This document shows, piece by piece, positions 35,355-48,065 of a DNA stretch of 64,000 bases; positions within the stretch are counted from its first letter, which is position 1; the number at the start of each line of letters is the position of its first letter. The notes under the pieces were generated by a model. The model had not been told where the DNA came from and searched no databases. It saw only the letters and a list, made by a program, of their open reading frames with translations. Position numbers and translations under genes: made by a program. The stretch is from Rhodospirillaceae bacterium (lineage in GTDB: Bacteria > Pseudomonadota > Alphaproteobacteria > UBA6615), in the NCBI GenBank assembly GCA_018667335.1, contig JABIVD010000007.1:80425-144424 (forward strand), written 5' to 3'.

Positions 35355-36338
35355 CTACGCCACCCGCAGATAGTGCAACGAGAACAGATTGTTGGCGTCC
35401 GTCCAGTGGCGGAAGGCGCGCCAGCCGGCCTTGGCGGCGAGCGCGTGGAACTCCTCCACGTCGTATTTGTGGGAATCCTCGGTGTGGATCGATTCCCCGG
35501 CGGCGAACTTGAAGCTGTGGCCATCAATCCGGACGTCCTGGTCCCAGTCGCTCACCAGATGCATCTCGATGCGGCCCTGATCCGCGATCCAGCGGGCATC
35601 ATGGGTGAAGCCATCCAGATTGAAATCGCCGCCGAGCTCGTCATTCACCCGGCGCAGGACGTTGAGATTGAATTCCGCCGTCACGCCGGCCGCGTCGTTG
35701 TAGGCCGCATGCAGAATGCTCATATCCTTGCGCAGATCGACGCCGATCAGGAGGCCGTTGTCGGTCCCGAGATCCGTCGCCGCGGCGCGCAGGAAATCCA
35801 CCGCCGCCGGCCGCGTGAAGTTGCCGATGGTCGAGCCCGGGAAAAATCCGATCCGCGCTTCGCCGCCCGCGATCTCCGGCAATTCAAACGGCTGGGTGTA
35901 GTCGGCCGCAATCGGCACAACCGGCAGATCGGGATAGGCGCCGGCGAGTGCCTTGGCCGATTCCAGCAGATGCTCGCGCGAGATATCGACGGGGATATAG
36001 GCCGCCGGGGTCTCGAGCGCGTCGAGCAGGATGCGGATCTTGGTGCTCGAACCGCTGCCGAACTCGACCACGCTGGCGTTGGCGCCGATCAGCTCGGCGA
36101 ATTCCGCGGCATGGGCCTGCAGCAATCCCATCTCGGTGCGCGTCGGATAATACTCCGGCAGTTCGCAGATCGCATCGAACAGCTTGGAGCCGCGTTCATC
36201 GTAGAAATACTTGCTGGAGAGCTTCTTCTGCGACAGCGCAAGCCCCTCCAGAACATCATCCAGGAAGCTGTCCGCCGCATGGTCGTACTCCACATAGTCG
36301 TGGAGTGGACCCAAGCTCACCGCCGTGGCCCCGCTCAT
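35355..36338 (-). CDS. egtD: L-histidine N-alpha-methyltransferase (ergothioneine biosynthesis)
   Basis: YFYDERGSKLFDAICELPEYYPTRTE and EFGSGSSTK match the EgtD (DUF2260) signature. Overlaps the egtB stop. Confidence 0.8.
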   Translation of the reverse strand: MSGATAVSLGPLHDYVEYDHAADSFLDDVLEGLALSQKKLSSKYFYDERGSKLFDAICELPEYYPTRTEMGLLQAHAAEFAELIGANASVVEFGSGSSTKIRILLDALETPAAYIPVDISREHLLESAKALAGAYPDLPVVPIAADYTQPFELPEIAGGEARIGFFPGSTIGNFTRPAAVDFLRAAATDLGTDNGLLIGVDLRKDMSILHAAYNDAAGVTAEFNLNVLRRVNDELGGDFNLDGFTHDARWIADQGRIEMHLVSDWDQDVRIDGHSFKFAAGESIHTEDSHKYDVEEFHALAAKAGWRAFRHWTDANNLFSLHYLRVA

Positions 36339-37708
36339 GTTGCTACTCCATCGTCGGCATCAGCGGCCAACCGCACACCGGCGAACACCCAGCGCATCGC
36401 GGGATAGAAGAAGTTCCGGTAGGTGGCACGGGTGTGCCCCTCGGGGGTCACACAAGCGCCACCGCGCAATACAAACTGATTGGCCATGAATTTTCCGTTG
36501 TACTCACCGACAGCGCCCGACACGGGCTTGAACCCCGGATATGGGACATATGGGCTCTGGGTCCACTCCCAGACATCGCCAAACATCTGTTCCGGCTGAT
36601 CGGGCGTCTCGCCCGTCGCCGGTGCCGTACGCAGCAGGCCGGACCCGACGAAGTTGCCCGCCACGGGCTGCTCACGGGCGAACACTTCCCACTCACCCTC
36701 GCGCGGCAGGCGCTTGCCCGCCCAGCGCGCATACGCGTCGGCCTCGTAGAGGCTCACATGGCAAACCGGCGCCTGATCGTTGACCTGCTGCAGTCCCGAC
36801 AGGGACATCGCGCACCATTCGTCGTCGACGGTCTGCCAATAAAGCGGCGCGTCCCAACCTTCAGCACCCACAGCAGCCCAGCCGTCGGACAACCACAGTT
36901 CAGGGCGGCCATAGCCGTTGTCGGCCATGAATTCCTTCCACTCGCCGTTGGTCACCAGCCGCGACGCCAGCCGGAACGGCGCCAGATGGACGCTGTGACG
37001 CGGCCCTTCATTGTCGAAGGCGAACTCGGATCCCTCATGACCGATCTCGACCAGCCCGCCATCATGATCGAACCAGCGCAGTTCGGGGGTCTTGCGGGCC
37101 GGTGAGGCGCGATAGGCCTGATAAGCCGGCGCGACGCTGTTAAACGAGAACGCGTGGAGAATATCCATCAGGATCAATTCCTGATGCTGCTGCTCGTGGT
37201 GCAGCCCCAGCGCAATCAACGGCGCGATCTTGTCCCATGTCGCCTCGTCAGCACCCGCGATGAGGCTCCGCATCGCGTCGTCGACATGGGCACGATAGGC
37301 CTTCACCTGGTCGGCGGTCGGGCGGGTCAGCAGCCCGCGCTCCGGGCGCGGATGGCGCGCGCCGACGGCGTCGTAATAGGAATTGAACAGAAACAGGTAG
37401 TGCGGATCGAGCGGCGCATAGCCGGGTGCGAAATCCCGCAGGATCATGGTCTCGAAGAACCAGGTGATATGGGCGCGGTGCCATTTGGTCGGGCTGGCGT
37501 CGGGCATCGACTGCACGACCTGATCTTCGGCCGACAATGGTGCTGCCAGGCGCTCGGTCTCGCCGCGCACCCAGTTGAAATGATCGAGAACCTGATCCCG
37601 GTCGCGCGGATGCGCGTCGAGGATCGCCGGCTCGGACCCCAAGGATGTCACGGCGCTTCTCCTGTTGGCGCCCGCGTCCCGCATGACCGCCTGTCCGGGA
37701 CACTTCAT
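36335..37708 (-). CDS. egtB: hercynine oxygenase / sulfoxide synthase (ergothioneine biosynthesis)
   Basis: DinB_2-like N-domain (HFNWVRGETERL...) followed by an FGE-sulfatase-like C-domain. Start is ambiguous among 37720 (TTG), 37708 and 37684. Confidence 0.8.
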   Translation of the reverse strand: MKCPGQAVMRDAGANRRSAVTSLGSEPAILDAHPRDRDQVLDHFNWVRGETERLAAPLSAEDQVVQSMPDASPTKWHRAHITWFFETMILRDFAPGYAPLDPHYLFLFNSYYDAVGARHPRPERGLLTRPTADQVKAYRAHVDDAMRSLIAGADEATWDKIAPLIALGLHHEQQHQELILMDILHAFSFNSVAPAYQAYRASPARKTPELRWFDHDGGLVEIGHEGSEFAFDNEGPRHSVHLAPFRLASRLVTNGEWKEFMADNGYGRPELWLSDGWAAVGAEGWDAPLYWQTVDDEWCAMSLSGLQQVNDQAPVCHVSLYEADAYARWAGKRLPREGEWEVFAREQPVAGNFVGSGLLRTAPATGETPDQPEQMFGDVWEWTQSPYVPYPGFKPVSGAVGEYNGKFMANQFVLRGGACVTPEGHTRATYRNFFYPAMRWVFAGVRLAADADDGVAT

Positions 37709-37887
37709 TCCGTAGCGCAATCATGAGCCACGGATCGAAGACCGTCCGACACATGGGCCGGACGTGGCAGTCGAGCGCGAGTAAACCAAGCCCGCTCACG
37801 CGCCGTCAACCGAAAGCCCCGAGAATTTGAGGGTTTGAACATTCGCCCTGACATTGACGGGCCGGATGGTCCGACTATGTTGGGCGC

Positions 37888-41671: not shown

Positions 41672-42310
41672 GTGCTGAAAGTTTTTCCTGCCGCTCTCGG
41701 CGGTGCCTGCGTTGTCCTGTCCCTGCTGACCAGTGTCGCGATTGCCGATGACGGCCTTACCTTCACAGTCATGCGCAACGGAGACGAGATCGGGACCCAC
41801 GAGATCGAAATAACCTCGCGCGGAGATCGCATGGAGGTCGAGATCGAGACAGAAGTGGCCGTGAAGCTGGCCTTTATCACCGTCTACAACTTTGACCACG
41901 AAGGACATGAGGTCTGGCAGGGTGGTCGGCTCGTTTCCTATGAGTCCCGCACGGACGATGACGGGACCGAGAAGTCGCTGCGCGCCAGAGCGGCTGGAGA
42001 TCATCTGGCCGTAGATGGTTCGGCGGCAAAGCGGAATGCGCCCGCTTCGGTCATCCCGGGCAGTCTCTGGAATCAGGCAACCGTGGCCCAAAGCAAGCTC
42101 ATGAATTCGCTGGATGGCAGCGAAATGGCGATCGCCGTCGCAGATCTGGGTGATGAAGATGTTGTGGCCGGCGGGAAATCTCTTCGTGCGCGGCACTATT
42201 CCCTGACCGGCGACCTACAGCGCGAGGTTTGGTACGATTCTGCGGGTCGGCTGGTGAAGGTTCGGTTTTCCGGCTCCGACGGCTCTGATATCCAGTATCT
42301 TCTGAAATAG
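41672..42310 (+). CDS. secreted/periplasmic hypothetical protein (first gene of low-GC island)
   Basis: GTG start with signal peptide MLKVFPAALGGACVVLSLLTSVAIA. No family recognised. Lies 44 nt upstream of the response regulator gene. Confidence 0.45.
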   Translation: MLKVFPAALGGACVVLSLLTSVAIADDGLTFTVMRNGDEIGTHEIEITSRGDRMEVEIETEVAVKLAFITVYNFDHEGHEVWQGGRLVSYESRTDDDGTEKSLRARAAGDHLAVDGSAAKRNAPASVIPGSLWNQATVAQSKLMNSLDGSEMAIAVADLGDEDVVAGGKSLRARHYSLTGDLQREVWYDSAGRLVKVRFSGSDGSDIQYLLK

Positions 42311-42353: not shown

Positions 42354-43052
42354 ATGCGGGTTTTGCTGATCGAGGACAATGTTCGGCTTGCCGGTTTCGT
42401 CGCCAAGGCGCTCGGTGCTGCGGGCTTCACGACAGATCATTGTGATTGCGCGGGTGACGGCGAGGCAGCGCTCGATACTGTGAGCTATGAGGCGCTGGTG
42501 CTTGATCTGGGTTTACCCGACGATGACGGGATGAACGTGCTCCGGCGGGTGCGGATGCAGAGGCCCGAGTTACCGGTTCTGATCCTGACCGCGCGCGATG
42601 GCGTTGAAGACAGGGTGGGTGGCCTGAATGCCGGAGCTGACGACTACCTGCTCAAGCCCTTTGCCATGGAAGAACTCATCGCGCGCCTCAATGCGCTGAT
42701 GCGTCGTCCCGGTAGCGCACTGGGTCGACGGCTGATGATCGGCAATCTGACATTTGATTCGGTGGGTCGGGAAGTCACCGTCGCGGAAACCGTTCTGAGA
42801 CTCACACGACGAGAAATGTCTGTCCTCGAATTGCTCATGCGGCGTGCGGGAAGGGTCGTACCCAAGGACGCACTGGCCGAAAGCGTCTATGGGTTCGACG
42901 AAAATTTTGGAGCGAACTCGATTGAGGTCGCCGTTCACCGTTTGCGCAAGCATCTGGAAGAGTCCGGTGCAGACTCTAAAATCCAGACGCTACGCGGGAT
43001 CGGTTATTTGCTTGTGGAGCCCCCAAACGAGATCAACGAGGCGGCCTCGTGA
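42354..43052 (+). CDS. OmpR/PhoB-family response regulator
   Basis: Receiver domain with acidic pocket and phospho-Asp (LVLDLGLPDDDG), plus a winged-helix C-terminus. GAGGAA SD. Confidence 0.85.
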   Translation: MRVLLIEDNVRLAGFVAKALGAAGFTTDHCDCAGDGEAALDTVSYEALVLDLGLPDDDGMNVLRRVRMQRPELPVLILTARDGVEDRVGGLNAGADDYLLKPFAMEELIARLNALMRRPGSALGRRLMIGNLTFDSVGREVTVAETVLRLTRREMSVLELLMRRAGRVVPKDALAESVYGFDENFGANSIEVAVHRLRKHLEESGADSKIQTLRGIGYLLVEPPNEINEAAS

Positions 43053-44431
43053 GGCGCTCCCTTCTCGGGCAACTGGTCGTGCGGCTTCTGGCCGTAACGC
43101 TTTTCTTCATTGCCTTATGTGTCGGAGCACTGCTGTTTCAGTTCGTCGAGCAGGTCGAGACCCTGCGTGACCGCGACCTGTCGGGACAAGCGCGCGATAT
43201 CGCCAACCATCTCGAAGTGACCCCGGATGGACGCGCATCCCTGCGCCTGCCGGATGCGCTGCGTGACGCTTATGATTCCAGCAACGGTATGTTTCTATTT
43301 GCGGTCCTCGACGACTCCGGAGCCGCGATCTTTACCTCGCGCGATGCAGGTGGTCCGATCGCGATCGGACCGGATGGCGGTCCGGCGCCGGACGAACCGT
43401 TTCAGGTGAGCCGCGTGATTGAGGGTGGATCGGACGTTTTCTATGGCATTACGGTGCCGGTCACCCGGGCGGAAAAGGCATTCTTCATTCAGGTCGCACA
43501 GGGACCCGGGCATTCGGATGCGCTGGCCGACGAGTTTCTCAACGAGCTCTGGGAATATGCGGGGTGGCTGCTCGCGATTCTTGTGATCCTGATTCTGGGT
43601 GTCGTCTATATAACCGTCCGGTCATCGCTGCGCCCGGTCACTGAAATATCGCGCCAGGCTGCTGCAATCACGCCGGCAACACTCCATGCCCGTTTAGGGG
43701 TGCGGGACCTCCCGCGCGAGCTCAGTCCTCTCGTTGAAGCTGTTAACAACGCCTTCGAGCGGATCGAGACCGCCTACCGTCAGCAGCGCGAGTTCACCGA
43801 CAATGCGGCGCACGAGATGCGCACACCTCTGGCTGTGCTTCGCGCGCATATAGAGAGCCTCAATCTCACTGATACTCTTTTGCCCGATGTTCTGCGGCTT
43901 GAACGGATTGTGGAGCAACTCTTGCGCTTGGCGCGGGCAGACAATCTGGCTCTGGCCAGCGATGCGCGGACTGACCTTAATCTTGTGGCCACTCAGGTGG
44001 CCGAGATGCTCGCGCCGGACGCCGTGCGTCGTGGTGTGGATTTTGGGCTGGAGCCGTCCGGTCAACCCGTCATCGTCCGCGGGGATGGTGACTATCTGTT
44101 TATTGCACTGCGTAATCTCGTGGAGAATGCCTTCAATGCTGCGGGACGGAGCGGGCGCGTGCAGATCATGGTGACCGATCCGGCAACAATCCGTGTCGTA
44201 GATTCGGGCCCGGGTATCCCGGTTGCCGACCGAGACCGGGTATTCGAGCGATTCTGGCGTGCCGATACCGCTTCTGATACAGGCGCGGGCTTGGGACTTT
44301 CCATCGTACGCCAGATAGTCGAGACCCATGGCGGATCCTGCACGGTCGGCGCAGATTCCGGGGGCGGTGCGGTTTTCACGATAAATCTACAGGCCGTTTC
44401 TCCTGCCCCGGAAAAAACTTCGGCCCTGTAA
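43049..44431 (+). CDS. sensor histidine kinase (TM - periplasmic - TM - HAMP - HisKA - HATPase_c)
   Basis: H-box AAHEMRTPLAVL and G-box GAGLGLSIV. Overlaps the RR stop. Confidence 0.85.
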   Translation: MRRSLLGQLVVRLLAVTLFFIALCVGALLFQFVEQVETLRDRDLSGQARDIANHLEVTPDGRASLRLPDALRDAYDSSNGMFLFAVLDDSGAAIFTSRDAGGPIAIGPDGGPAPDEPFQVSRVIEGGSDVFYGITVPVTRAEKAFFIQVAQGPGHSDALADEFLNELWEYAGWLLAILVILILGVVYITVRSSLRPVTEISRQAAAITPATLHARLGVRDLPRELSPLVEAVNNAFERIETAYRQQREFTDNAAHEMRTPLAVLRAHIESLNLTDTLLPDVLRLERIVEQLLRLARADNLALASDARTDLNLVATQVAEMLAPDAVRRGVDFGLEPSGQPVIVRGDGDYLFIALRNLVENAFNAAGRSGRVQIMVTDPATIRVVDSGPGIPVADRDRVFERFWRADTASDTGAGLGLSIVRQIVETHGGSCTVGADSGGGAVFTINLQAVSPAPEKTSAL

Positions 44432-44505: not shown

Positions 44506-45096
44506 ATGCATTTTTCAATCATCTCCACGCAGCACCCGGATCGCGCACGAGCTGAATCCGGTATCGAGGACGTTTATCAGCGCCGTTACGGATGCTCGGT
44601 TCCGTCATTCGCGCCGCATCTTGCCGTTCTATCTGGCGCTGATGGCAATGTTCTGTGCGCTGCAGGTGTGCGACTTGGCGGAGAGCAATTTTTCTCTGAA
44701 TCCTACTTTGACACGCCTGCTGAGACTTTGGCGGCGAGGGCGTTGGGCCGTCCTGTCGACAGGTTCGAGATCGTCGAGATATCCACCCTGGCTGCCGTAC
44801 GGAGTTGTGCAGCCGGTCCGTTCCTCAGTCAGCTCGTCAATCGCACACGAGAACTGGGAACCAGCATGCTGTTGTTCACGGCAACCGGACGACTGCGGAC
44901 CTACCTTCAACGTAATGGTGTTTCTCTCATTGAGCTTTGTCCCGCTGATCCGGCCCGGCTTTCCGGGCAGGATGGCTGGGGGACTTACTTCGATCATGAT
45001 CCGGTTGTCTGTCTGTCTCCCGATACAGTCGCGCGCCCCTTCACCCTTGCCCCACCGGCCAGTCTGGCAGGTCAGCGTTTACGGGTTGCCGCCTGA
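44506..45096 (+). CDS. small GNAT-fold candidate acyltransferase (T_hemolysin / LuxI / FeeM-like clan)
   Basis: 196 aa. Core EIVEISTLAAV resembles the LuxI/N-acyl-amino-acid synthase EL-S-R-F-A motif. Family assignment is from memory and unverified. Confidence 0.4.
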   Translation: MHFSIISTQHPDRARAESGIEDVYQRRYGCSVPSFAPHLAVLSGADGNVLCAAGVRLGGEQFFSESYFDTPAETLAARALGRPVDRFEIVEISTLAAVRSCAAGPFLSQLVNRTRELGTSMLLFTATGRLRTYLQRNGVSLIELCPADPARLSGQDGWGTYFDHDPVVCLSPDTVARPFTLAPPASLAGQRLRVAA

Positions 45097-46610
45097 TGTC
45101 GGTCACGATTGGTAACCTTCGGGAATGGGCGCGGACCCGCGCGCAGGAACCGGCCCTTAATGACGGTACGATCCGGATCACCTACGGAGAGCTTGCAACG
45201 CGTGTCGGTGGGTTTGCAGCGGCGGCAAAAACGTTCCCAAAGATTGTCGGTGTCCTCGGAGAAAATTCCGTGGATTGGGTGATTGCCGATCTTGGTCTCA
45301 TGGCAGCCGGACGCACATTTGTGCCGTTGCCGACGAGTTTCTCGAAGACTCAATTGCAGCACGTCATCGCCGATGCCCGGGTCGGACTGGTTCTGCATGA
45401 TGTCGACTCCGCGCAGAAGGCGGCAGAGTTGGATGGCCAAACGCGAGGACTGGATGACCTGACCCGGCGCAGCGCGCCCCTGCGCGACGCGTCTATCGCA
45501 TCTGGGCTGCCCAACCGGATTATCTATACGTCGGGCACGACTGGCGCGCCCAAGGGCGTGAAAATTGGGCAGCCACAAATCGACTTTATGGCCCGTGCGC
45601 TGGCAGATGCCATCGGTGCAGGTCCGCAGGACCGCTACATGTCCGTTCTGCCCTTTGCGCTCCTGCTGGAACAACTCTGCGGCATTCATGTCCCGGTTCT
45701 GGTGGGGGGTGAAAGTCGGCTGGTGCCGTCGGTGGCGATCGCGACAGCGCGCGGCCAGCCATCCGATCTTGCGGGGGCTGCATTGGAAGTCCGCCCCACG
45801 GTCAGCGTCATGGTACCGGCGTTGCTGGGGTTGTGGCTTGCAGGCCTCGACCCCGTGGCTGGGGCACCCGACAGCCTGCGTTATGTCGCGGTGGGCGGGG
45901 CGCCGGTTGCACCCTGGCTCGCCCAGGCAGCATGGGAGGCGGGTATTCCTGTCCACGAAGGCTACGGCCTGTCCGAATGCACTTCGGTTGTCGCTCTCAA
46001 TCGCTTTGGCGAACGGGTTGCGGGGACGGTTGGCCGACCATTGGACGGGATAGACGTCACGATCAGCGAGACCGGAGAAATCATCGTGTCAGGCCCGTCG
46101 ATTATGGACGGATATCTGGGAGGCAAGAATGCTTCGGCCAGTTTGTTGACGGGTGATTTGGGGGCGATCACGCCGGCGGGACATCTGGTTGTTCATGGTC
46201 GGTGCGACAATGTTCTGGTGACCGCATTCGGTCGCAATGTCAGTCCGGAATGGATTGAGCCCATGCTGATCGCTGATCCCCGCATAGAGCAGGCGGTCGT
46301 TCTTCTGGACAGTGAATTGAAACTGACGGCCCTGCTCGGCCTCAATGACGAAGGCATGGCGTGGGCGGCCCGGATGGCCCCGGACGAACTTACCCAGCAC
46401 GTAGTGGCGTTGTGCCGGGATGCCCCGGCTTATGCCCGCCCCGAACGAGTTGCGATCCGTCCGGTGAATGATCTTCTCACCAGCGGTGTTGTGGGGCCAG
46501 GCGGGCATATCGACCGCCGCTGCGCTGTGGACTGCCTGCCCGACATCGATGCCCGGTGCGTGACGAATCCTATGGATGAAACCCGGAACATGGAAAGTGA
46601 AACCGTATGA
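45096..46610 (+). CDS. ANL-superfamily adenylate-forming ligase (acyl/aryl-CoA ligase-like)
   Basis: A3 YTSGTTGAPKGV, A5 GYGLSECTS, A7 TGDLG and A8 GRCDNVLVTAFGRNVSPEWIE. The A10 Lys is apparently not conserved (see finding on the adenylation lysine). Start overlaps the upstream stop. Confidence 0.8.
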   Translation: MSVTIGNLREWARTRAQEPALNDGTIRITYGELATRVGGFAAAAKTFPKIVGVLGENSVDWVIADLGLMAAGRTFVPLPTSFSKTQLQHVIADARVGLVLHDVDSAQKAAELDGQTRGLDDLTRRSAPLRDASIASGLPNRIIYTSGTTGAPKGVKIGQPQIDFMARALADAIGAGPQDRYMSVLPFALLLEQLCGIHVPVLVGGESRLVPSVAIATARGQPSDLAGAALEVRPTVSVMVPALLGLWLAGLDPVAGAPDSLRYVAVGGAPVAPWLAQAAWEAGIPVHEGYGLSECTSVVALNRFGERVAGTVGRPLDGIDVTISETGEIIVSGPSIMDGYLGGKNASASLLTGDLGAITPAGHLVVHGRCDNVLVTAFGRNVSPEWIEPMLIADPRIEQAVVLLDSELKLTALLGLNDEGMAWAARMAPDELTQHVVALCRDAPAYARPERVAIRPVNDLLTSGVVGPGGHIDRRCAVDCLPDIDARCVTNPMDETRNMESETV

Positions 46611-47290
46611 GTTTTTTCGATCAGCTTGAATCTGAGACCAGTGAGGCTCGTGAGCGTTTCACCCGTATCCCTGTCATTTCACGCGCTCTGGCCGAGGGAG
46701 TCCCGATGGATCTGTACGTGTCCTATCTCGGGCAAGCCTATCACCATGTTCGCCACACCTGTCCGCTCCTCAGGGCGGCATTGGACAGATGTAATTCGGA
46801 AGACCGGGCGCTTGCCGGTGCCTTGCGCGAGTACATCCTTGAGGAAGAAGGCCACGAAGCCTGGATTCTCGATGACATCCGCGATCTCGTCGGACCCGCT
46901 ACGGTGGAGCACACCATCGAATACGAGGGCGATCCGCCCGTGCGTGCGCTGGTAGGCTTCATGTATGACGCCATCGCACGGCGTGGGCCCCATGCCATGC
47001 TCGGCATGGTCCATGTGCTTGAGGGTATGTCGGTCCAGCTGGCTGAAAAAGCAGCCGCGGCCATTGCCGGTCATATCGGCGAGACGCCGGACCAGGGGTT
47101 TCGATACATGATGTCTCACGGCAGTCTCGATCAGGAGCATGTCGTTTTCTTTCGAGACCTTGTTAACGACATATCGGACCCGGCCTCGCAGGCGCAGATC
47201 ATCGATACCGCGAACATGGTCTACTACCTTTGGGGCCGCATGTTCGACGAGCTTGACCAAAGCAATGAAGGTGCCTCCCGTGCCGCATGA
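46607..47290 (+). CDS. heme-oxygenase-like diiron oxidase (HDO; CADD/PqqC/TenA_C fold)
   Basis: Ligand-like pattern E...EEGH, then (56 aa) VLEG, then (32 aa) SHGSLDQEH, which is H-x3-D-x2-H. A Lys lies 9 residues after the second Glu. 4-nt overlap with the ligase gene. Confidence 0.5.
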   Translation: MSFFDQLESETSEARERFTRIPVISRALAEGVPMDLYVSYLGQAYHHVRHTCPLLRAALDRCNSEDRALAGALREYILEEEGHEAWILDDIRDLVGPATVEHTIEYEGDPPVRALVGFMYDAIARRGPHAMLGMVHVLEGMSVQLAEKAAAAIAGHIGETPDQGFRYMMSHGSLDQEHVVFFRDLVNDISDPASQAQIIDTANMVYYLWGRMFDELDQSNEGASRAA

Positions 47291-48065
47291 TCAGCCGGTG
47301 ATCGTCATTACGGGTGCGGGAAGCGGCATCGGACGTGAGTTGGCGCTAATGGCCGGACGGCGGGGTGCAAGGCTTGTTCTTATCGGACGGAGACATTCAG
47401 CACTTGAGGTCACGGCGGCTCAACTCTCAGGCCATCAAGTGGATACGTTCCAACTGGATGTCACCGACCCTTCGGGTTGCGCGCGCCTGGCGGAATTCCT
47501 CGAACCGAAATACGGTCGGGTTGATGTGCTGGTGAACAACGCGGGACGTATTCTCGTTGGCCCGGTCGGGGATATTGAACCGACAGACGTTTCGGCCATG
47601 CTTGAGACCAATGTTCTGGGTCCGATTCTATTGACGACGCGCCTGCTGCCGCTCCTACGTCGCAGCGATCAGGGCCATATCGTCAACGTTGGCTCGATGC
47701 TGGGCGATATTGCGATGCCCATGTTCGCGGCTTATGCCGCCAGCAAGTTCGGTCTGCGCGGATGGTCAGACGGCTTGCGGCGCGAGCTACGACATGAGGG
47801 CATAAAGGTGACCTACGCTGCGCCACGCGCAACGCAGACCTCTGCGGCGTCCGCTTTTGAACATCTGATTGAGCCGTTTGGGATGAAGGTGGACGTACCC
47901 GAAGCTGTTGCACTGCGCATCTGGCGTGATGTCCAGAAGGGCCGTGCAACAAGCTATCCATTCGGTGTCGAGCGGTTCGCACGTAGCCTTCAGGCATTCG
48001 TTCCGGGCGTGATTGACCGGGTGCTTTCCGGGCAGTTCAAGAAAACAGGGCCCGCAACTTTGTGA
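47265..48065 (+). CDS. SDR family oxidoreductase
   Basis: ITGAGSGIGRELA and YAASKFG. Start is ATG 47265 or GTG 47280; both overlap the HDO gene's 3' end. Confidence 0.8.
   Translation: MKVPPVPHDQPVIVITGAGSGIGRELALMAGRRGARLVLIGRRHSALEVTAAQLSGHQVDTFQLDVTDPSGCARLAEFLEPKYGRVDVLVNNAGRILVGPVGDIEPTDVSAMLETNVLGPILLTTRLLPLLRRSDQGHIVNVGSMLGDIAMPMFAAYAASKFGLRGWSDGLRRELRHEGIKVTYAAPRATQTSAASAFEHLIEPFGMKVDVPEAVALRIWRDVQKGRATSYPFGVERFARSLQAFVPGVIDRVLSGQFKKTGPATL

Follow-up and report, generated by a model that had tools for sequence, protein, structure and literature searches.

A predicted heme-oxygenase-like dimetal oxidase encoded in a conserved acyl-activation operon of Proteobacteria

The locus analysed here, a stretch of 64,000 nucleotides from a Rhodospirillaceae bacterium (contig JABIVD010000007.1; the whole 64-kb stretch is called the window), raises the question of what a protein with the ligand spacing of a heme-oxygenase-like dimetal oxidase (HDO) does between an ANL ligase and an SDR (short-chain dehydrogenase/reductase). 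An earlier reading of the DNA letters by themselves (the sequence-only reading) had proposed that the protein resembles the HDO known as CADD, including its self-sacrificing lysine. We find that the protein is very probably a two-iron, O2-activating heme-oxygenase-like enzyme belonging to a clade remote in sequence from every characterised HDO. Its gene does not stand alone but comes third in a unit of four that are translationally coupled:

44506..45096, + strand: 'thermostable hemolysin' (T_hemolysin) gene, 196 aa; PF12261, E=6.5e-41
45096..46610, + strand: ANL (AMP-binding) ligase gene, 504 aa; PF00501, E=3.9e-53
46607..47290, + strand: gene for the heme-oxygenase-like dimetal oxidase, 227 aa; PF14518 match
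47265..48065, + strand: SDR oxidoreductase gene, 266 aa, with an alternative TTG start at 47253; PF00106, E=6e-49

The 227-aa reading frame and its motifs were found just as the sequence-only reading had described them. LEEEGHEAW occupies residues 78-86, VLEG residues 137-140 and SHGSLDQEH residues 170-178, with 56 residues from H83 to E139 and 32 from E139 to H171; K148 lies at E139+9, and tyrosines stand at positions 37, 40 and 45. The start at 46607 is supported by the overlap of the HDO ATG with the ANL stop codon (ATGA) and by conserved N-terminal residues: the N-terminal 33 residues are conserved, with L7, T11, R15, F18 and P22 kept in orthologues. In two metagenome assemblies of the same organism (L082, 12201-12785; L083, 9950-10534) the HDO was called from Met34, giving 194 aa, and the SDR begins about 60 residues late. 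As the N-terminal residues are conserved in orthologues, the longer HDO and SDR forms are favoured; the 194-aa HDO calls are probably too short and the 227-aa form preferable.

In Pfam, the window HDO matched PF14518 (iron-containing redox enzyme) with E=1.2e-18 and 68 bits against a gathering cut-off of 28.9. When the whole window was translated in six frames, the pattern E..H-(50-62)-E-(28-36)-H...[DE]..H had a single match, the HDO reading frame, and the same six-residue expression matched 164 of 200,000 shuffles of the HDO protein. The metal-ligand pattern is not a chance occurrence. A database search returned more than 1,700 homologues, the best of them mostly alphaproteobacterial, and a profile searched exhaustively against 1.8 billion representative proteins found 1,003 relatives at E<=1e-10. 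The HDO call alone will not surprise a specialist, as databases already carry it as 'iron-containing redox enzyme'. Candidate promoters and terminators were no more numerous than in shuffled sequence, and that scan was not used.

Conservation was assessed in 80 orthologues (41-83% identity) drawn from alpha-, beta- and gammaproteobacterial genomes. The predicted ligands are encoded at three places:

46844..46858, + strand: E80-E81-G82-H83-E84 codons, comprising the core helix-1 pair E80/H83 and a possible extra carboxylate, E84 (from conservation and the MboA alignment)
47021..47023, + strand: E139 codon, predicted core helix-2 carboxylate ligand (80/80; aligns with MboA Glu143 and CADD Glu142)
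47117..47140, + strand: H171-x3-D175-x2-H178 codons, predicted core helix-3 ligands (80/80; align with CADD H174/D178/H181 and MboA H172/D176/H181)

Each of E80, H83, E139, H171, D175 and H178 was present in 80/80 orthologues, and all six were also invariant in a separate alignment of 31 homologues (48-83% identity). The Glu, His and Asp positions that the sequence-only reading had taken for ligands are thus retained throughout the orthologues. Among the same 80 proteins G82 was 100% invariant, as were Y37, Y45, H47, Y76, W86 and Y167, and E84 was 91% conserved, with Asp in 6. The predicted 3-His/3-carboxylate set is therefore complete on core helices 1-3 (E..H / E / H-x3-D/E-x2-4-H). From these alignments we predict that the six invariant residues on the three core helices bind two O2-activating metal ions, and that E84 may be a seventh, exchangeable ligand. 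Run on the alignment, AlphaFold2 gave a confident model (pLDDT 89.8) that showed a seven-helix heme-oxygenase-like bundle. Confidence was weakest at residues 141-180, which include core helix 3 (pLDDT 73-80), in agreement with the lability of this helix (alpha3) described for HDOs in a 2026 review (PMC13108848).

The nearest relatives were sought by running the family profile against all PDB sequences, and residue correspondences were counted through the printed alignments. Four proteins were reached, and no further solved HDO among those sequences:

3DDE, Sden_3740 of Shewanella denitrificans: profile E=7.6e-15; uncharacterised
1RCW / 8VA9, CtCADD: profile E=2e-5
9YPI, MboA: profile E=3.5e-3
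9PJ4, a second para-aminobenzoate (pABA) synthase: profile E=1e-2

The top profile matches are thus 3DDE, CtCADD and MboA, and not TenA or a PqqC devoid of metal ligands. The best characterised match of the clade, and its nearest characterised relative by sequence, was CADD at 27 bits; CtCADD was also among the top fold matches of the HDO model. The HDO-type ligand set is borne out by both characterised enzymes. The crystallographic Fe ligands of MboA (Glu86, His89, Glu143, His172, Asp176 and His181; PMC13185094) align one-to-one with E80/H83/E139/H171/D175/H178 of the window HDO, and four CADD ligands (E142/H174/D178/H181) align with E139/H171/D175/H178. MboA Asp90, a partially occupied extra ligand whose exchangeable carboxylate follows the His, corresponds to E84, and MboA Tyr82, the proposed catalytic base, to the invariant Y76. 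The CADD-like spacing claimed by the sequence-only reading held approximately, except at helix 1, where the pair is E-x2-H instead of the E81...H88 of CADD. The E-x2-H pair is also that of 3DDE and MboA, and of the HDO UndA.

Two identities that would displace a tailoring HDO were weighed on these data. CtCADD makes pABA from its own Tyr27 and Lys152 by a relay that includes Y141 and Y170 (PMC13108848), and the window protein could be a self-sacrificial synthase of this CADD/NePabS type, cleaving its own Tyr and Lys side chains. The closeness of CtCADD in sequence (E=2e-5) and fold, the common 3-His/3-carboxylate set and the alignment of relay Tyr170 with invariant Y167 would all suit such an enzyme. 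The lysine that the sequence-only reading had put forward as self-sacrificing was not upheld, however: K148 occurs in 22/80 orthologues, and Lys152 of CADD aligns with A149, a position that is Ala in 63/80 and Lys in 0/80. Relay Tyr141 aligns with invariant Leu138. Although Y37/Y40/Y45 are present as claimed, no conserved Tyr precedes residue 37 to represent Tyr27, the region of which falls outside the HMM alignment. The NCBIfam CADD model TIGR04305 scored 17.1 bits against a cut-off of 200, and the gene belongs to an acyl-activation operon, where a fusion with the ligase is often seen, and not to a folate context. A CADD-type pABA synthase was rejected on the TIGR04305 score and the replacement of Lys152 by Ala149 and of Tyr141 by Leu138, and we regard it as very improbable. 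Scarcely any probability attaches to the other identity either, that of a metal-free enzyme of the heme-oxygenase fold (TenA thiaminase II or PqqC-like) or a true heme oxygenase. It is suggested by names given automatically by JGI and NCBI, 'PQQ biosynthesis protein C' (JGI) and 'TenA family transcriptional regulator', both of which are automatic labels. The window HDO had no Pfam match to TENA_THI-4 (PF03070), PqqC or Heme_oxygenase at E<=0.01, and no PqqC was found in NCBIfam. C52, the only Cys near the conserved helix-2 motif, is found in just 30/80 orthologues; the six metal-ligand residues are kept in all 80, and no thiamine or pqq genes adjoin the window HDO, the neighbours being T_hemolysin, ANL and SDR. 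TenA, PqqC and heme oxygenase were rejected on the absence of a family match together with the invariant metal ligands.

The flanking genes seen by the sequence-only reading, the ANL ligase upstream and the SDR downstream, were confirmed, and this context is strongly conserved. In the window, where local gene order is all on the + strand, the four enzyme genes overlap or abut, with start/stop overlap and with the SDR overlapping the 3' end of the HDO gene. Among 80 genomic loci from Alpha-, Beta- and Gammaproteobacteria, the ANL gene was directly upstream of the HDO in 73/74, the T_hemolysin gene upstream in 71/74 and the SDR directly downstream in 73/79, so that the order T_hemolysin-ANL-HDO-SDR is kept in about 73 of 74-79 loci. 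Two Rhodobiaceae metagenome-assembled genomes (MAGs; L002 and L003) were the only loci of the 80 with no SDR homologue detected after the HDO. Many relatives of 680-750 aa are ANL-HDO fusion proteins, those of the Xanthobacter and Azospirillum type among them, in which Pfam finds AMP-binding and AMP-binding_C_3 joined to the HDO, and in 9/80 loci the HDO frame is open for more than 900 nt upstream, consistent with an ANL fusion. Taken together, fusion, conserved order and translational coupling show that ligase and HDO act in one pathway. The search of representative proteins also gave a single fusion of an enoyl-CoA hydratase/isomerase with an HDO (P0284, 605 aa), which suggests that CoA thioesters are handled beside the HDO in at least some lineages.

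The core adenylation motifs are present in the ANL protein, which among solved structures is closest to MenE and to the adenylation domains of nonribosomal peptide synthetases. Across 64 orthologues its C-terminal subdomain (residues ~400-504) shows little conservation; in some homologues Pfam finds the variant domain AMP-binding_C_3. As the operon encodes no carrier protein, we infer that CoA is the likely acyl acceptor. No paper characterising this operon or HDO clade was found in the open-access literature or bioRxiv, nor was a described or characterised counterpart to the fixed partnership of ligase, LuxI/FeeM-like protein, SDR and sensor.

The LuxI/FeeM-like partner is the product of the T_hemolysin gene. 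Its AlphaFold2 model (pLDDT 89) gave as top Foldseek matches the N-acyl-homoserine lactone (AHL) synthases TofI, MesI, LasI, RpaI, BjaI and EsaI and the N-acyl amino acid synthase FeeM, with TofI best (E=5.6e-9) and TM scores of 0.53-0.61; general GNAT acetyltransferases scored lower. A homologue search with the single sequence gave 4 matches. PF12261 was the only Pfam match, with none to Autoind_synth or Acetyltransf_5. As only PF12261 was matched and no relative was found among PDB sequences, we describe the protein as LuxI/FeeM-like and not as a member of those families: the model predicts an acyltransferase of GNAT-derived fold that would work in the manner of LuxI and FeeM. The name 'thermostable hemolysin' may describe a side effect of the enzyme's product rather than a toxin.

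Upstream of the four enzyme genes lie three further genes, which complete a unit of seven:

41672..42310, + strand: secreted DUF6134 protein; PF19630, E=3e-57; its N-terminus reads as a signal peptide
42354..43052, + strand: OmpR-family response regulator; Response_reg + Trans_reg_C
43049..44431, + strand: sensor histidine kinase; 2CSK_N, HAMP, HisKA and HATPase_c domains

The 2CSK_N domain is one typically found in PmrB/QseC-type kinases. Such a two-component system is usually close by: 37/52 loci having full flanks carried a response regulator and kinase within 6 kb, and 11/52 the DUF6134 protein. Aromatoleum aromaticum EbN1 and Pseudomonas plecoglossicida carry a contiguous block of T_hemolysin, ANL, HDO, SDR, TPR protein, response regulator and kinase. 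Beta- and Gammaproteobacteria have TPR proteins bearing signal peptides, apparently as substitutes for the secreted DUF6134 protein, which is probably the alphaproteobacterial version of a periplasmic accessory of the sensor. In Tepidicaulis marinus (L011, 7495-10748) the operon is followed by genes for an outer-membrane beta-barrel protein, a cytochrome b561 and an EptA-type phosphoethanolamine transferase.

Clusters in three published papers resemble this operon by annotation, though none of the papers recognised it. Pseudomonas alcaligenes AVO110 carries A9179_RS08440-08460, annotated as FadD/AMP-binding protein, iron-containing redox enzyme, SDR, TPR protein and response regulator (PMC8304167), an annotated order equal to that of the Pseudomonas loci in this analysis. 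The cluster was induced 38- to 389-fold by fungal exudates, together with the response regulator, and 'fadD' was needed for growth in them (PMC8304167). In Vibrio parahaemolyticus, VP1729 (thermostable hemolysin), VP1731 (iron-containing redox enzyme) and the two-component gene VP1735 were linked in a protein-interaction network analysis (PMC10469919). By published annotation, genes for an 'iron-containing redox enzyme' and a two-component protein are close to VP1729; if the three are orthologous to the genes described here, the Vibrio thermostable-hemolysin gene sits in such an operon. The V. cholerae protein delta-VPH was reported to be haemolytic in lysates and supernatants though it has no signal peptide (PMC4046660). 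In Serratia sp. ATCC 39006, the operon or1352-or1355 encodes a TauD dioxygenase, an ANL protein, a delta-VPH homologue and a Bcr/CflA exporter, and all four genes are among those most de-repressed in an rsmA mutant (PMC4046660).

We give a probability of about 60% to the reading that the protein is a true HDO, most likely diiron, acting as an O2-dependent tailoring oxidase or oxygenase in a four-enzyme pathway of acyl activation and acyl transfer that makes a small lipid-like molecule. The ANL ligase would activate a carboxylic acid, probably as the acyl-CoA, and the acyltransferase would couple the acyl group to an amine, the amine being an amino acid or a donor like S-adenosylmethionine. The HDO would then bind a carboxylate-bearing intermediate at Fe1 and oxidise it with O2 by hydroxylation, desaturation or oxidative decarboxylation. 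A substrate of this kind is proposed because those of UndA, AetD, HrmI, PolF and MboA ligate Fe1 by their carboxylate (MboA: PMC13185094). The SDR might interconvert the resulting alcohol and ketone, and the product, a small lipid-like molecule, would serve as a signal for the adjacent sensor kinase or be made under the kinase's control. Among possible roles of the product we would place a signal first, then an envelope lipid, then a detoxification conjugate, and take catabolism as the main rival.

Several points weigh against this pathway. Fold searches place heme oxygenases and TenA thiaminases nearly as high as HDOs, and as fold alone does not separate these enzymes, the HDO assignment depends on the ligand motif. 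In the ANL C-terminal subdomain the canonical A10 'GK' lysine motif was not recognisable, which makes formation of a CoA thioester an assumption. T_hemolysin resembles LuxI and FeeM in structure only (TM 0.57-0.61, 11-18% identity), and its family profile found no relative when run against the PDB sequences. Response regulators and kinases were counted by tblastn with generic domains, so some of the 37/52 may be unrelated systems, and the links to P. alcaligenes, Vibrio and Serratia are drawn from annotation and gene order as published. The AVO110 authors, assuming beta-oxidation, took their cluster for fatty-acid catabolism (PMC8304167). The fold, the conserved ligand set, the operon and its fusions, and the fold of the acyltransferase are observed or computed; metal content, substrate, reaction type, step order and the link to the sensor are inferred.

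Other roles for the operon have to be set beside this biosynthetic pathway. It may serve inducible catabolism or detoxification of exogenous fatty or aromatic acids, sensed by the two-component system, activated by the ANL ligase, attacked by an UndA-like HDO and processed or conjugated by the SDR and acyltransferase, with no signal or secondary metabolite involved. The strong induction of the AVO110 cluster by fungal exudates, the reported need for 'fadD' and the authors' own proposal of fatty-acid degradation (PMC8304167) agree with such a role, as does the known fusion of an enoyl-CoA hydratase with an HDO. The conserved unit, however, has no beta-oxidation enzymes such as an acyl-CoA dehydrogenase or thiolase; a LuxI/FeeM-like acyltransferase is a biosynthetic and not a catabolic type of enzyme; the efflux pump and RsmA control of the Serratia variant are typical of secreted products (PMC4046660); and the HDO has no sequence-level similarity to UndA. 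We consider catabolism unlikely. The proposal that the operon remodels the envelope, making or modifying a membrane aminolipid or lipid A substituent under a PmrAB/QseBC-like two-component system with the HDO hydroxylating or desaturating the lipid, is a good deal less probable again. The 2CSK_N sensor domain of the kinase favours it, as do the production of N-acyl amino acids by FeeM-like enzymes and the reported haemolysis by delta-VPH without a signal peptide (PMC4046660), which would fit a membrane-active lipid, and the EptA, beta-barrel and cytochrome b561 genes of the Tepidicaulis neighbourhood hint at an envelope-remodelling regulon there. Yet EptA stands beside the operon in one locus only, the four enzymes have no predicted membrane-spanning segments as far as Pfam matches show, and no O-acyltransferase or flippase is conserved with the unit.

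A bolder form of the biosynthetic pathway, which we hold only tentatively and think unlikely in full, is that the seven-gene unit (T_hemolysin, ligase, HDO, SDR, secreted accessory, response regulator and kinase) is an unrecognised small-molecule signalling circuit, widespread in Proteobacteria, Vibrio and Pseudomonas included. An N-acyl compound oxidised by the HDO would be exported, the cognate kinase would sense it in the periplasm, the delta-VPH haemolysis known for decades would be a side effect of a membrane-active lipid, and the HDO would carry out an undescribed reaction on an acyl-CoA or N-acyl substrate.

More than 10,000 HDOs are predicted, but the reaction is known for only about a dozen, and to date every new one solved has shown unusual O2 chemistry (PMC13108848). 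As its ligands are the canonical HDO set, the window protein is not a new kind of enzyme. Its clade is well suited to functional work, with fixed partners (ligase, acyltransferase and SDR), natural ligase-HDO fusions and genetically tractable hosts in the Pseudomonas putida group, Vibrio parahaemolyticus and Aromatoleum, and at least one condition giving several hundred-fold induction has been published for a cluster of matching annotated order (PMC8304167). The 'thermostable hemolysin' family gains a testable explanation, that of an enzyme and not a toxin, and many proteobacteria may hold a new signal/sensor pair. Together, the operon, the fusions and the reinterpretation of T_hemolysin give a concrete, testable approach to new HDO chemistry and perhaps also a new signalling system.

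Other genes of the window were noted beside the operon. A SulP/DauA-like permease (48140-49405, + strand, 421 aa, no STAS domain match) begins 75 nt after the SDR and did not recur in the other loci whose neighbours were inspected. An adenylate/guanylate cyclase with a long N-terminal region (49460-50923, + strand) also follows the operon; in a Terasakiella MAG (L029, 7477-8760) the same operon again has such a gene downstream, its product 41% identical. On the - strand at 35355-37720, adjacent genes encode a Methyltransf_33 protein (EgtD-like histidine methyltransferase) and a DinB_2/FGE-sulfatase protein (EgtB-like), a probable ergothioneine biosynthesis pair. Also on the - strand, at 53630-55171, a 513-aa protein with PPDK_N and PEP-utilizer domains carries between them the His/Asp-rich run HEHDHDHAHKHSHDHDHDHDHDHDHDHDD, which could be a metal-binding insertion.

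The window HDO can be set against known systems as follows. Its closest solved relative, 3DDE (Sden_3740), is only 17% identical and, as a structural-genomics entry titled 'TENA/THI-4 domain of unknown function with a heme oxygenase-like fold', provides no functional lead. MboA, the HDO acetylenase of mangotoxin biosynthesis (PDB 9YPI/9YPL/9YPM), matches it in every ligand but has H-x3-D-x4-H on helix 3, and the two are weakly related (E=3.5e-3). The substrate of MboA is a tripeptide that ATP-grasp ligases assemble, and the enzyme depends on a redox partner, MboB; neither an ATP-grasp nor an MboB-like gene is present here. CtCADD and NePabS have the heme-oxygenase-like fold and the 3-His/3-carboxylate site in common with it, but CADD stands alone for folate supply, whereas the window HDO sits in an acyl-ligase operon. 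UndA, a fatty-acid oxidative decarboxylase, has no similarity to the window HDO that the family profile can detect, and it is free-standing, with no need for a ligase, acyltransferase or SDR. On the acyltransferase side, the CoA-dependent AHL synthases of the LuxI type (BjaI, RpaI and MesI) and FeeM are the best structural matches of T_hemolysin, which would be expected, like them, to draw on acyl groups in activated form; the gene beside it encodes a dedicated ligase. The locus has no LuxR-type receptor but a two-component system in its place, and AHL synthesis has no counterpart to oxidative tailoring by an HDO and an SDR. The Serratia or1352-or1355 operon, known from the annotation in its paper alone, joins the same pair of ligase and T_hemolysin with an O2-dependent iron oxygenase. 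There an Fe/2-oxoglutarate oxygenase stands in place of the HDO, and an exporter replaces the SDR and two-component system; by analogy, this variant suggests a ligase/acyltransferase core that takes an exchangeable oxygenase.

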